The notes under the pieces were generated by a model. The model was not told where the DNA came from. It searched no databases and saw only the letters and a list, made by a program, of their open reading frames with translations. Shown here piece after piece: positions 2,991 through 32,925 of a stretch of DNA of 33,684 bases (position 1 is its first letter; the number at the start of each line of letters is the position of its first letter). The DNA is from Asterionella formosa (lineage: Eukaryota), in contig NKIB01000316.1 in NCBI GenBank assembly GCA_002256025.1, positions 1 to 33,684 on the forward strand. Reading direction: 5' to 3'. A program made the translations under genes and the position numbers.

Positions 2991-4319
2991 ATAGTGAAAG
3001 GTGAATTGCCGGAGTCCACTTTTCAGGAGACAAACATAAACAAGGTGAATTCTAGATATAAGTTATTAAAATCTGTAGAGTATATAAAATGGTTTCCTTA
3101 AGTAGACCCCTTGCTTGCCAATTTTGGCAATCCCAGGGCTGGAAAACCAAGGGGCAATTGGTACAAATTTTAATGCCAAAATGCGAACATAGGAAATGTT
3201 CAAAATATATTTTAATGATAGGCAATATCAGAACCATTGCAAATTTCGATGTGCGTGAAGATAGGATATAATCGAAATATATTTTATATGATGGGCTATA
3301 GTGAGCTAAAATTGACATTTAAACTCAATGAGTGGTCAGTAGCTAGGTAAGCAAATGGTGCAACAAATCACGTTGTTGTTGTGGTTGAGTTCATTCATGA
3401 TGAACTCGAAATCGAATTCCATTGCACAGCGATGGCTGTGAAAGCTTTCTTGTAGTAGCTTAATTGTAACACCCATAGGACCATATGTGATTCATTCCTA
3501 ATTATCAATCAATTCTTGTAGTACATAAAAGCTATCCAATAATCGCACTTGTGCCCAAATAAATGAATAAATGGACACAATTAGTACCGGTTTTATTCAT
3601 CTGTACAGTACAATGGGAACTGTCTTTTTGTCAGCTGCACCCCCCGGAACCGTAGGGACTACATGAAAAAGACAGGTGGAGAATACAGGAATCAAACCTG
3701 CCACCACAACATGTTTTAACCACTAAGCCATTCCCCATGTGTGATTCATTCCTGTACAGTTTCATCTCCAGATAGCCCACTGTCAAGCTCAAGAGCTTTT
3801 GTATGTGAATTGGTTGGTCATGTAGTAGGCATATATTTGCCATGCTCAACACAAACTAGGTCATACATGAACCAAATCGTGTTCTCCTGTGCCGCTTGAT
3901 GCGTTCACTGATAGCGCTTCTCTCATAAAGCTTATGTTGATAAATCAAGTGACACAGGAGTTTTGTAAAATTGTTGAGTAAATCAACAGAATAATACCGA
4001 CATGGTTAATGTATTTTTAGTATGGTTTTTTAGGCACAGAATGTTATATACAGTAGGGTCGGGGGTTTTGCCAATACTAGGCCTGTATGTACAGGGTCTT
4101 CCTTGTGGCCCCGCCCAAAAGTGCACCCAGGCATTCAGACTACCGGTACGCCGTACAGACTTAATATATATATTTAAAAGGTACCGGTCTTTCAAATGAT
4201 CCTAACTATTACCTGTTGGGTACCTGGTACCAGGTACCACCAGGGTACCGGGGGTACCTTGAATCCAGAACAAAGGATATGCGGTTTTTCACTTCAGCCA
4301 GAAAAGATTTATTTTGGAG

Positions 4320-5128: not shown

Positions 5129-5543
5129 AAACTATGTATGTATACACTTACAACCGATACAAGGTGTGTCGAAATAAAGTATACACAATATATCATAAAA
5201 GTGAATTCACTTTGGGTACCCGGTATGCTCCTACATACTGTACTGCATATTTTTTTTGTACGGTGATTACATTGTTTGATTGTATACACCCTTGGACATT
5301 CCCTACGGTACCCAATTAAGGAACACTTCGAAACTGCCTCAAAAACAGCATGAATTATTATGTGGAATGTTAGAATGTAAGCATGATTGGTGGGTAGGCA
5401 CAAAAGCAAGACACGAATACCGGTTGCGAAAATTCATAGCTCCTTTACAGCCTTTTTCTAACTCGCTCAGCAGGCCTCCCAACCACAAACACAAGTCAGC
5501 ACTGCGTCGACGAGACCTAGCCATCCACTCATACGTGTGTGTC

Positions 5544-8500
5544 ATGGAGGCTTCAAGAAGGATCAGCAAGGAAGGAGGGCAAGGCCGCGGATTTCTTCCC
5601 AAAAACGTGAAACGTTCCAGCGCGGTTCAGCTCAACTTTGCCAATCGCGAGTTGTATGGACGAACACAAGAGATCCAAGTTCTTCAAAATGCCTTGGATT
5701 ATTGTCTCCTCTCCAAAGAACCTTTCATTGTATTTGTGAATGGTCCATCTGGGGTGGGCAAGTCATCGCTGATCGCAAAGATGAAAGAATTGGTTCCAGA
5801 TGCTGGTCACTACGTATCTGGAAAGTTCGAACAGCGGGCCGAAGCGCTGCCCTTTTCGGCCATAGCTAATGCCTGCACGGAGCTGTGCCATTCAATCGAG
5901 GAAAGCCAGATAGAGGGAATACGGCAGAAAATGAATGAAGGCGCGCAAGATCCCACCATATTCATGCACTTGGCTAACTTAGTACCTGAATTCCAGCATC
6001 GTATTTTGGGCGATGCCGGCGATTCCGGTTCGCTGATTGAAAGGAGCGCCGAACTAAACACTTCATTCGAGCAGCTCAAAGTGTCATTCAGACAATTTCT
6101 TAGAGCAGTGTGCATGTTTGCAGCTCCAGTTGTTTTTGCAATCGATGATCTTCACTGGGCTGATTCGGAGTCGATGGCCCTGATCACCTGTCTAGCGATA
6201 GACGACGACATCTCTGGCTTGCTAATTGTTGGAACCTACCGCTCAGAAAATACCAAAGAGACATACCCTTTGATGGTGCAGATGAAACAAGTTGTTGCTA
6301 AACACAAGGACCCTGACGCCTTCAATAGCATTGAACTCGGCAATCTGAGCCTCAATCATTTGAACGAATTCATTATGAAATTAACTTCCAGGAGTCGAGA
6401 AGACTGCATGGAGCTTGCCAAGACAGTTTTCGCCAAAACGAATGGTAAGTTTATTTATTTTACTACTTCGCCCAGCCCCTCCTTCTAACTTTCGTTCGTT
6501 AGGCAATCCATTTTTTGCTGTTCAGTTCCTTCAAATGTTGCAGAATGACCGTTTTCTTTATTTCTCGCGAGACACTTTTGTATGGACTTGGGATACTGAA
6601 ACCATACAGTCGGAAACCTCTATTACCGACAATGTGGTCGATCTAATTGCAAACTCCCTTCGCATGCTCCCCCTCAAGACTCAGAACTTTCTTATGGTTG
6701 CTAGTTGTCTTGGCACTCGATTCGATGTCTCCACTGTTTGGACAGTGTTCCTGTGCTTGAAGGAAGACTACACATCCGAAGACAACGAAAGCGGCGTAAC
6801 TGAAAACGTCTCTGATATCTTGCAACCTGCGATTAAAGAAGGGCTGATCATACAGTGTGATGATACTCTGTATCGATTCTCGCACGACAAGATTTGCGAA
6901 GGCGCTTATTCTCTTTTCGCAAACGACAACGAAAGGAGGAAGGTGCATTGGAGCTTGGGAACTGCGATGATGAAAATATCCACCCGGAAACGGATGCCTT
7001 CGTCCACGCCGATTGCGGTTCGCCAACTCAATCGTGGAGTAGGCGCGATTGAAAATCCTGAAACAAGGTTGATGCTTGCAACATTGAACCTGACGGCAGC
7101 TAAACTTCTTATTGAAAAATCTGCTTTTTTGTACTCATCAAATTTTTTGATAACAGGAATTGCTTTGTTGAGCTCAGGCCAAGAAATGTGGAGTCAGCAT
7201 TATGACCTTGCTTTGGACCTGCACTCGACGCTTGCGGAGATGCAATTCAATCTGGGAGATTTTACAAGGTGCTTCGAAACAATTGATCAAGTTCTCCGTT
7301 TCGCTAGGTCAGTTAAGGATACCCAAAGAGTAACAGTGGCGAAACTGGATGCACTCTCTTCTAAGGGAGATTCTCTGGAAGGAATTAATTTTGGACTGCG
7401 AGCATTGAAGCAGTTGAAGATACGCATTTCAAAGCATCCTTCGCCGTTAGCGGTTGCTCTTGAATTCCTAAAAGTGCGAAGTATGTTTAATAAGTTTTCC
7501 TTTGAGGCCTTGCTGGATCAAGAGATGATGGCAGACAATGACAATCTCATGGCTACCAAGATTCTGAACATCCTTAATGATTTGGCCTTCTTCACCCAGA
7601 ATCACAACTTACACGGTATGATATGTCTACAAATGACCAAACTGACTCTTCTCCATGGCTCGACAGAATACAGCGCCTTCGCGTTCGTACTTTACTCGTT
7701 CATCCTAGGAAAGACTGGGGACCTAGCTGCAGCGCACAGGACTGGGTGTATGGCCCTGGATTTGGCCAAGGGACATAAATCAAAGAAAATTGAAGCTCGA
7801 GTTTCGATGGTGATGCAAAGCTTTATCAATCACATTCGACGTCCAATCGTTGAGAGTCTGGATTCATGCTTAAAATCGTACTATGTCGGGATGCAGGTTG
7901 GCGACATCACTTATGCCGCTTTCAATGCTTATAATTGTACGTGTCAATCAAGACCCACTTTGTCGATCCAACCGTTCTAGCCTGCCTTTTCAAATACTCA
8001 CCGTACAAGACTCTCTTCCTATCTCATTCCAGATTGTTTACTCTATACTTTTACAGGTTTGCCCCTCGCTCCACTTTCTGTGGATATGCAGTCATTTTTG
8101 GATCAACTGACAAAATATAACCAATGCATTGCACAAACTGGAATAGAGATGTACCATCGATTTATTCGTGGCATGATGGGAAATACCCCAAACCCATTAA
8201 AATTCACTGGTACAGGGCTGGCCTTCACAGAAGAAGAATATTTAGTTCAATGTCAAGTGAAAAGGGTCGAGCTCCATATTTTGACTTTTTATTTCCTGAA
8301 AATGTGGGCTGCTTACATCTTTCAGGACTACGACCTCGCACTGAAATGTACGAAAGTATTCTGGAAACGACCTGCAAATGCGGATGGGAGTGCAGCTTGG
8401 GCCCCCCTGGTGTGGTTTTTTACTGCTATGACATATCTCGAGTCTCAAAGGCAGGCTCATGGATCTGTCGCGAGGCGCCATTGGCGACGTCGGGGTTTGA

Positions 8501-9078
8501 AAACCATCAAGCTGCTTGAAAGGTGGGTTGAAGTGGACAAGGTATTGAATTGTCAGCACAAATTGTTGATAATCTATGCGGAGAAGGATCGTGTTGCAGG
8601 AAAGAAATCAGTGGACGAAATAAAGGCAGCATACGACCTGGCAATTTCTGCTTGTACAAGGAGCGGCTTCCTTCAAGACAACGCTCTGGCTAACGAAAGA
8701 GCTGCGAATTTTGCCATGGAACACCTTGATGAGGATTGGGCAGAACATTATCAGAAGCGATCGTTTGATTTGTATGTCCAATGGAACGCAACAGCAAAAG
8801 TCGAGCAAATGAAGAACACATTTCGTTACCTATCCGACAGGTCGATGCATGCGGGTTCTAGTCGCAGCTTCCGCGGACGTCAGCGCTTCTCAGCGACGAT
8901 CACTGATTTTCACTTTGCTGGATTAGATTCGATCTTGTCACTGTTTGAAGTTGAAGACGAAGACGAAGGATTGAAACCGGAGGATTCAGGACTGTCCTTT
9001 TCCGTCGAAGATACCCGATTACGTGAGAGGCCTCATTTGCCTTTGAATTCGCCTCCTCTTTGTCCTACAATCGTTTAG
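5544..9078 (+). CDS. COG3899-type predicted ATPase (STAND/AAA P-loop plus helical TPR-like region), ~1126 aa; exons 5544-6444, 6503-7936, 8033-9078
   Basis: Motifs LYGRTQE, Walker A GPSGVGKS, GKFEQ, Walker B FAIDDLHWAD, FSHDKI, ALANERAA and WNATAKV. Intron 6445-6502 (GTAAGT..CTAAC..TAG) restores KTNGNPFF. Intron 7937-8032 (GTACGT..CAG) joins in frame to the 8059 ORF. The start codon is inferred. Confidence 0.9.
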
Positions 9079-9752: not shown

Positions 9753-11066
9753 CTATGTTTCTTTAAAGACAGATGCCAGAGGGTCCTCTGGTAGGACATA
9801 GTCTTCCTTTCGCTGTTTCCGTTTCTTTTCATTATCCTTCCGTCCAATGTAGGCATTGCCATGTTCGGCCTTTTCCTGAGACCGAATGTCATTGGGTGAT
9901 ACAAAGTCTGGATTCTTGTACAACGTTTGGCCACCAAACGATCCACGAAAAATGCGAATGGGGTTTAGTACAAAACGAGGACCAATTTCCACCAATGACG
10001 TGGCCTGAATTTGACCAGACTGCTTCTTGGCCAAGTGCGCCTCAAGAGCATTGTTGGCTTGTTGCTCGATTATCTGGTAGTTACGGACCCAAATCTGTAT
10101 AATTTCAAAACGAAAGGACGCAACTTGGTGAGCAACGCAAACGTGATAAGCAACTGTTGACACTCTCCGTAGATGCGACATGCCATGTGTCTCATTCCAT
10201 CGTAGTCTAATACAAAATTATGGTTGTTGCTCTCATACCGCTTTCACGGTCCGATATACGCTCATCATTGATTAATCATCGGCACAGTTTGGCATTTCTT
10301 AAAACTTTCTTCTACGCCTTGCAGTCTTTCTTACCTTTTTGTCAGCGTAATAAAATGCCATGACTCGATCCACAAATGGCTTGCTTTTTGGATGGCCCCG
10401 AGGGATTCCCCAAACATCAGTAAAGAGTTCTTTGAGGAGTTTCAAATGTCCCAATTTGGAAAAGCTAGAATCAAACGTCAAGATTGGCCGACTTCCTTTC
10501 ATGCAATTTCCGGTCAGACGTAATTCATCCATGGTATGAATGTTGGTGACATGAAAGCGCACCGAAGGGCCAACTGTGGCGCGACCCATCCACAGATACG
10601 CGTCTTGTCGTTTACGGCACTCCAGAAACAAGACCGTATTGCACGATCTCATTTCGGCAATGTCATTGACGGCCCGACCAGCCCCGTCCGCGCCGGGGTC
10701 TAACTTGGACTCCTTTTTGTGATGAGGCATCAATGTTCGAAGATCTTCCAACAAATGACGGTACCGGGCAGTCACTCCACGAGAGCACAGCACGAGGCAT
10801 CGTTGCTTGTTTCGATACCGACCATCACTAACGTGTGGAGTGATGGGCTCTTGCACGTCCTGATGGTTGTCGTCGTCATCATTCTCAGAAGCTTCTTGCT
10901 CATCGTCAACAACGGCGTCGTTCTCAGGAGCTTCTTGTTCGTCGTGTTCAACAACTTCGTCGTCTACTTCCATTTGCACTTCTTCGGCTACTTTGTTATT
11001 TTCATTAGGCTCGACCACCTTTTGGCGCTTATTTGTTGTTGTTGTTGTTCGCTTTGCTTTCGCCAT
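9753..11066 (-). CDS. BRX1: Ribosome biogenesis protein BRX1 (Brix domain), ~357 aa; exons 11066-10335, 10094-9753
   Basis: Motifs SRGVTARYRHL, PHHKKESKLD, NIHTMDELRLTGNCMKGSRPIL, KSKPFVDRV, IWVRNYQI and EIGPRFVLNPIRIFRGSFGG. A phase-0 GTAAG..CAG intron lies at 10334-10095. Confidence 0.96.
10181..10294 (-). ncRNA. Candidate intronic box C/D snoRNA (18S rRNA guide)
   Basis: Lies inside the 240-nt BRX1 intron. It has C-like boxes ATGATTA (10279-10273) and ATGATGA (10268-10262), D-like ATGA boxes (last at 10195-10192) and a terminal stem TGCCA..TGTG/CACATGGCA. The 12-mer AGACTACGATGG, complementary to 18S CCAUCGUAGUCU, lies one nt upstream of the last box. Confidence 0.6.
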
Positions 11067-11520: not shown

Positions 11521-11592
11521 TCCGACATAGTATAGTGGCTAGTATCCCCGCCTGTCACGCGGGAGACCGGGGTTCGATTCCCCGTGTCGGAG
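11521..11592 (+). tRNA. tRNA-Asp (anticodon GUC)
   Basis: Acceptor stem TCCGACA/TGTCGGA with discriminator G, D-loop AGTGG, anticodon arm CCCGC-CTGTCAC-GCGGG and T-arm CGGGG-TTCGATT-CCCCG. A T6 Pol III terminator lies at 11601-11606. Confidence 0.98.
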
Positions 11593-14664: not shown

Positions 14665-15047
14665 ATGAACAGAAATGCATTCACTGAATGGTTCATTGCT
14701 AGCAACATTATCTAGTTGCAGATCAGAATTACAATTCTTTATCAGTAGTAGTACTAGAGCATCAACCAAGCCGTTGGCAGGAAGGACCGGTAGCGCATGT
14801 TTTCTGAGCACCTTTCATTTCGACACACTCCCAATGGATTGTCTCATGCTTGCCGGATGACATAGGCTGGCTATTCATTCCAAACCCTCTTAAGTAGCTT
14901 TCTTCAATGTTAAATTATAGTAATTCATTAAATCCAAGTCGTGTTCTGATCATCGAAATCTTGTTCACTACTAAAACTGGTAATGGTATTCAGCAACTGG
15001 ATGACGGTTTGCTAAGCAATGGAATTCACCAATCAACAAAATCAGTA

Positions 15048-32807: not shown

Positions 32808-32925
32808 AGGAACGACCATACATGATGACAATACCGCTTCCCGTCTGCTCAGCGAAGTCAAGCATCATCGGGCCCGGTTAGTACTACGGTGGGGGACCAC
32901 GTTGGAATCCCGGGTGTTGTTCTTT
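32808..32925 (+). rRNA. 5S rRNA (single copy in window)
   Basis: AGGAACGACCATAC...CCCGTCTGCTC..GAAGTCAAGC..GGGCCCGGTTAGTACTACGGTGGGGGACCAC..GGAATCCCGGGTGTTGTTC followed by a T5 terminator; ~118 nt. Confidence 0.97.

Follow-up and report, generated by a model that had tools for sequence, protein, structure and literature searches.

A predicted U27-type box C/D snoRNA in a diatom BRX1 intron, with guides to 18S rRNA A28 and to a helix-24 uridine

Main finding

The 240-nt intron of the BRX1 gene in the window (the whole analyzed stretch of 33,684 nucleotides from Asterionella formosa) contains an element that is very probably a box C/D snoRNA guiding 2'-O-methylation of 18S rRNA at A28 and at a uridine of helix 24. 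To judge by its sequence, this predicted snoRNA is of the U27 type, with a D guide that would do the job of plant snoR20. It belongs to a known class, its mechanism would be the textbook one, and what is apparently new is the combination of guides in one, apparently undescribed, RNA. In the literature covered, we found no description of this RNA, of any BRX1-hosted snoRNA, of a diatom snoRNA catalog or of a diatom rRNA Nm map, the coverage of subscription journals being thin and annotations or supplements being places that could contain one. The two guides predict two precise methylation sites, one of which, the mark in helix 24, is on record for land plants only and is thereby predicted in diatoms.

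Host gene and intron

The best protein hits to the window gene are named ribosome biogenesis protein BRX1, and its product carries domain PF04427. The reading frame, on the minus strand, is interrupted after ...YADKK by an intron at 10334..10095, the 240-nt interval proposed in the first-pass annotation. RNA contigs from two out of four runs (X1, X2) join 10335 exactly to 10094, hence the intron is spliced.

10335..11066, minus strand: first coding exon of BRX1, 244 codons, Brix domain (protein best hits, PF04427)
10095..10334, minus strand: BRX1 host intron, 240 nt, phase 0, GT..AG (joint in RNA contigs X1, X2)
9753..10094, minus strand: BRX1 coding exon 2 (homologous proteins and RNA contigs)

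The RNA runs are assembled contigs of long-RNA libraries, a type of data unable to reveal a mature snoRNA. Contigs that cover the intron occur in X1 (10117-10304), X2 (10067-10364) and X6 (unspliced); their ends differ from those of the snoRNA, and they were excluded as expression evidence.

At four other frame breaks of the window, a rough search gave candidate introns of 45-197 nt (58 and 134 nt among them), three out of four being ambiguous. The one orthologous BRX1 intron that lacks the element has 86 nt (locus L020), as against 194-308 nt for complete single-copy introns, and the distance from the D box to the 3' splice site is 78-118 nt in most copies. In the proposed pathway, the BRX1 pre-mRNA would be spliced and the excised intron trimmed to a stable box C/D snoRNA of ~95-100 nt, which would then assemble with Snu13, Nop56, Nop58, and fibrillarin.

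Structure of the element

10186..10286, minus strand: predicted box C/D snoRNA, ~95-100 nt (ends set by the inner stem; an outer stem extends to 10295/10180)
10281..10286, minus strand: terminal stem (k-turn stem I), 5' strand (two-sided changes at 6/6 pairs, 26 copies)
10273..10279, minus strand: box C, AUGAUUA, core UGAUU (TGATT in 26/26 copies)
10256..10266, minus strand: D' guide GAUGAGCGUAU, pairing with host 18S nt 26-36 over 11 bp (one of them G-U), D'+5 = A28
10250..10253, minus strand: box D', CGGA in the window copy (CUGA in 12/26 copies, CNGA in 24/26)
10237..10250, minus strand: short hairpin separating D' from C' (predicted fold; sequence varies between copies)
10230..10236, minus strand: putative box C', AUGAGAG here, a GUGAAGA-type word in Thalassiosirales-like copies (placed by its position and conservation)
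10197..10208, minus strand: D guide AGACUACGAUGG, pairing with host 18S over 12 bp, D+5 at the U of CCAUCG
10192..10195, minus strand: box D, AUGA (ATGA in 26/26 copies)
10186..10191, minus strand: terminal stem, 3' strand (covariation across copies)

The same order of parts, namely, stem, NUGAUU(A), spacer, GAYGAGCGUAURU, CNGA, hairpin, C'-like word, spacer, AGACUACGAUGG, one base, AUGA, and stem, recurs in an alignment of 26 copies (the window copy and 25 copies from 24 loci; ten near-identical copies and L020 were dropped), and conservation in this alignment is limited to boxes, guides, and stem. The boxes, the guides and the covarying stem bear out the proposal, made from the window alone, that the intron holds a box C/D snoRNA. 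The copies were delimited by a script requiring TGATT and a stem with at least 4/6 pairs, with the first letter of the D box left free (L068 was added by hand), and therefore the box C count and the pair statistics lean towards the model.

The UGAUU/AUGA pair is found in all 26 distinct copies and a terminal CUGA in none of them, so that the canonical consensus RUGAUGA/CUGA does not apply. The terminal boxes are capable of a k-turn, with tandem GA pairs, a U-U pair and one Watson–Crick pair. In k-turn geometry, the last U of UGAUU lies opposite the A of AUGA, a U-A pair replacing the usual G-C, and it is from these two boxes (NUGAUU and AUGA) that the terminal k-turn would form. AUGA had been suggested as the D box, and the invariance of ATGA agrees with this. 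Moreover, it is retained in three copies that lost the adjacent D guide (L030b, L036, L069), and thus is a box rather than a part of the guide.

The closing stem, also anticipated by the first-pass annotation, covaries: all six pairs beyond the boxes vary on both sides, and 89% of cells in the alignment are paired, compared with 74.9% after shuffling (none of 500 shuffles as high). Stem registers slid along the alignment pair at 25-67%, and the actual register is the best of seven. The fold as a whole has no unusual stability (z -1.55).

Other box assignments of the first-pass annotation held in part. The real box C is AUGAUUA at 10279-10273; the canonical-looking AUGAUGA at 10268-10262 overlaps the start of the D' guide, and its place is taken by GACGAG in Thalassiosirales-like copies, with no conservation of a box. 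Of its ATGA D-like boxes, the terminal one is the D box, but box D' is CNGA (CGGA here). A possible internal helix, in which the D' guide would pair through its 5' end with the segment that follows C', averages 5.5 bp, versus 4.4 bp after shuffling (22 copies); it is suggestive in several copies and at chance level in the window copy.

Several prokaryote-style gene calls (P0041, P0111, P0114, P0120) run into the BRX1 intron and share a spurious conserved peptide, NDERMSDR, which is the misread D' guide of the snoRNA. Such spurious conserved tails in gene calls can flag intronic RNAs.

Guides and predicted targets

The D+5 rule is the established basis for assigning the methylated nucleotide. 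Both guides of the element have at least 10 nt, lie directly upstream of D or D', and pair at position +5 (12 bp and 11 bp, respectively).

The 12-mer AGACTACGATGG at 10208-10197 is followed by A and then by ATGA (10195-10192). Host 18S carries its exact complement, CCATCGTAGTCT (733-744 of L001), so the A-variant of diatom 18S given in the first-pass annotation is right, as are the match of the 12-mer next to the last box and the assignment of the U in CCAUCG by D+5. This U lies in helix 24 and corresponds to ~U1001 of the host (hand count) and U1013 of Arabidopsis. A 12-nt match to the 18S fragment arises in 283 out of 20000 dinucleotide shuffles of the intron, and one followed by NTGA, in 31 out of 20000. 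Since the whole window contains 14 matches of at least 12 nt to this fragment, the 12-mer alone is not significant, and the proof comes from conservation: at least 11 contiguous pairs with 18S are retained in 23 out of 26 copies, the reference for all guide comparisons being the 18S of the window host, not that of each organism. The spacing between guide and D box is exact in 23 out of 26 copies, and the register equals that of Arabidopsis snoR20. The D guide is deleted in L036 and L069, where boxes and D' guide remain. In the host assembly, which is possibly incomplete, the patterns of the D guide and of the D' guide occur once each. A second box-and-guide match, at window position 14953, sits in short repeats and was judged to be due to chance.

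The D guide of Arabidopsis snoR20-1 pairs with this stretch of 18S in an identical register, and its target is given as Um1013 in the PMC8583080 supplement and the PMC8053127 table. In the PMC11542601 review, Um1013/Um1012 is an experimentally mapped site listed for three land plants only (Arabidopsis, tomato, and tobacco) and termed plant specific. The D guide of the diatom RNA would direct methylation to this snoR20/Um1013 site.

The first-pass annotation described a single guide; the one to CCAUCG stands, and the second, the D' guide, had been overlooked. This D' guide, with 18S A28 as its target, identifies the RNA as U27-type. The 5' end of host 18S was recovered from five loci, and the guide pairs with nt 26-36, its predicted target A28 being the universal U27/snR74 site. 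At least 10 contiguous pairs with host 18S are found in 24 out of 26 copies, and in these the D' guide is directed to A27/A28 as in U27. In the window copy, box D' (CGGA) is degenerate and guide positions +1 and +2 are unpaired. Where the guide varies between U and C, the opposite base in 18S is G34, hence both forms pair. According to the PMC11542601 review, Am28 has been mapped experimentally in plants, human, and yeast.

Among other rRNA sequences, the D' guide forms no contiguous duplex longer than 9 bp in L001 (18S from ~nt 266) or L084 (partial LSU) and none longer than 7 bp with the 5S rRNA and tRNA-Asp of the window. With L082, probably a bacterial or plastid 23S rRNA, the best duplex is 11 bp with several G-U pairs, and this target was rejected. 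Host 5.8S rRNA was sought and not found. In the L084 locus (G000:C14886), a partial LSU rRNA is joined to sequence that looks retrotransposon-like; across L084 and L087-L091, at least six contigs break ~260 nt into 18S, the rDNA being fragmented in the assembly.

Conservation across diatom loci

A metagenome scan with a diatom BRX1 alignment gave 80 loci, of which 73 were examined and seven excluded, as their matches end before the intron site. An intron is present at the same BRX1 position in 34 out of 73 loci (L022 and L027 among them have no recognized downstream exon); at 39 loci, which are spliced transcripts, intronless genes or distant relatives, there is no intron at the site. The check on orthologous diatom introns that the first-pass annotation had called for came out positive: 33 out of 34 intron-bearing loci carry the element, and it is missing from L020. 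A covariance model built from the 26 copies matches these 33 loci and the window and none among the other 47 of the 80 loci; for the training copies a match is built in, and the ten others that match are near-duplicates of training copies.

Among the carriers, L048 encodes a BRX1 protein 99% identical to that of Skeletonema marinoi and falls within a supported clade of 15 rows in the BRX1 tree, which is poorly resolved at its base and was used solely to note this clade. The named top hits of the window BRX1 protein are pennates. Thus, the element spans Thalassiosirales and, presumably, pennates.

Some loci carry tandem copies. The L030 intron contains two (3097-3184, 3238-3332), the first retaining the helix-24 guide and the second, the A28 guide; both keep the boxes, and the D' guide of the second is slightly imperfect. 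The 505-nt intron of L024 holds two complete copies (3086-3185, 3271-3370), a recent tandem duplication. The loss of a guide, as in L036 and L069, and the partition in L030 are natural examples of how guides move between snoRNAs. Since L036 and L069 lost the D guide and L020 lacks the whole element, some lineages can do without it at this locus. In the multi-kilobase BRX1 contigs L032, L044, L046, L051, and L052, which have no intron at the site, no relocated copy was found in the fetched flanks.

Comparison with known snoRNAs

Rfam searches of the window at gathering thresholds yielded 5S rRNA and tRNA only and no snoRNA family, so that, as the first-pass annotation had warned, automated scans at curated cut-offs miss the snoRNA. 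In the E-value mode, the best snoRNA match in the window is snR79 (RF01184) with 17.9 bits and E 4 (cut-off 55), and no match to SNORD27 (RF00086) is listed there. SNORD27 is the best-scoring family on homologues searched alone (L030, E 0.0009; L041, E 0.011), its scores of 31.3 and 25.5 bits lying below the gathering threshold of 52; hence “U27-type” is a functional label and not formal Rfam membership. No model of snoR20 gave a match in the Rfam searches of the window and homologues. Searches for other diatom C/D snoRNAs with U14-, U59-, U43-, and U25-type guide patterns gave nothing snoRNA-like.

The diatom RNA shares with U27 (SNORD27, snR74, AtU27) the D' guide to 18S A28 (human Am27), placed just after box C; it differs from this family in the BRX1 intron host and the score below the RF00086 cut-off. 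The similarity to AtU27-1 and AtU27-2 extends to the AUGAUU/AUGA boxes listed in the PMC8583080 supplement, whereas AtU27 has U6 A43 as its second target according to PMC8053127, in place of the helix-24 D guide. Plant snoR20 (AtsnoR20-1, At3gCDbox99.1), as given in PMC8583080, resembles the diatom RNA in the D guide to the same segment, with the same register and target U, and, judged by eye, may also do so in the stretch from C' to the guide; unlike the diatom RNA, it lacks an Am28 guide in its listed sequence, and its boxes are the canonical GUGAUGA/CUGA. In yeast, snR79 (RF01184, 18S Cm1007) also has a D guide over this 18S segment, but with canonical CUGA, a +5 target two bases 5' of the diatom site, and no Am28 guide; in the diatom RNA, the D box register points not to the C equivalent to yeast C1007 but to the U two bases 3'.

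The AUGA box is not a novelty but a published compensatory variant: AUGAUU/AUGA has been described as such in three cryptophyte nucleomorph snoRNAs, GtNM-R12 to R14 of Guillardia theta, in PMC6461891, which also cites work where the double substitution restored L7 binding. As presented there, these RNAs have different targets and seemingly are not intron-hosted U27-type RNAs. An AUGA D box is also reported for a small fraction of Dictyostelium snoRNAs (PMC8817022). Among 67 Arabidopsis entries of the PMC8583080 supplement, compared by eye, five end in AUGA, all five have AUGAUU, and two of them are U27; for AtsnoR8 and At4gCDbox3.3, the supplement gives mapped sites as targets of guides next to AUGA D boxes. 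Accepted members of the class, such as AtU27 and AtsnoR8, thus share the departure from the canonical consensus. In Plasmodium (PFS4) and Dictyostelium (CD18), the published RNAs that guide Am28 carry canonical boxes, unlike the diatom RNA, and in Ostreococcus the Am28 guide is reported in a differently built RNA (further comparison literature: PMC4247016, PMC3116282, PMC2656528, PMC3511168, PMC2780460, PMC7671301). As Plasmodium and Dictyostelium are canonical, the AUGA variant that U27 of Arabidopsis shares with the diatom RNA may be either an ancestral trait or the result of convergence.

It seems rather unlikely that the diatom RNA preserves an ancestral U27 of plants and diatoms, with the U-A pair and the helix-24 guide, inherited vertically or via algal endosymbiosis, while land-plant U27 and snoR20 were derived by duplication and guide partition as in L030. 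If so, Um1013, for all its “plant-specific” label, would be an ancient mark found in plants and diatoms alike. Scans demanding CUGA would miss a whole conserved family, and the Rfam cut-offs miss the diatom RNA.

Alternative explanations

We consider it very unlikely that the element is a stable U27-type snoRNA methylating A28 only, with the D-side pairing serving as an rRNA-folding or docking element. The L036 and L069 copies, which lost the D guide and yet keep the boxes and the D' guide, would fit such a division of roles. The changed pair might also weaken catalysis, since assembly reportedly requires stem II of the C/D motif, to go by the title of Watkins 2002 as cited in PMC6461891. However, a mere docking sequence is hard to reconcile with the exact guide-to-D-box spacing in 23 out of 26 copies, in the register of Arabidopsis snoR20; besides, the PMC8583080 supplement assigns mapped sites to Arabidopsis guides with AUGA boxes, and the double substitution restored L7 binding (work cited in PMC6461891).

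The same 18S segment could be read in the register of yeast Cm1007, making the D guide an snR79 orthologue that methylates the C two bases upstream, and snR79 is indeed the best-scoring snoRNA family in the window. This register, to which we assign a still smaller probability, needs a D box two bases further 3', where there is no box-like word; a stem slid by +2 drops the pairing from 89% to 54%; and AUGA is invariant even in guide-less copies. Finally, 12-nt matches to 18S are common at the scale of the window, and intron-covering contigs occur in the RNA runs, as might be expected if the element were a cis-acting signal of the BRX1 intron, e.g., in splicing control, or if the rRNA matches were due to chance and no snoRNA existed. 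This explanation is the least credible of all: two guides address two known Nm sites, each at exactly +5, covariation is seen in the k-turn geometry, and in tandem copies the guides have been divided between the copies.

Neighborhood of BRX1 in the window

A tRNA gene with the GUC anticodon (Asp, as read from the sequence) is situated at 11521-11592 on the plus strand, ~450 nt upstream of BRX1 and divergent from it, and the single 5S rRNA match of the window, at 32808-32925, is also on the plus strand. The multi-exon gene at 5280-9078 (plus strand) encodes a P-loop (GPSGVGKS) ATPase-like N-terminal part, and we assume it to resemble AAA/TPR-type kinase-associated proteins.
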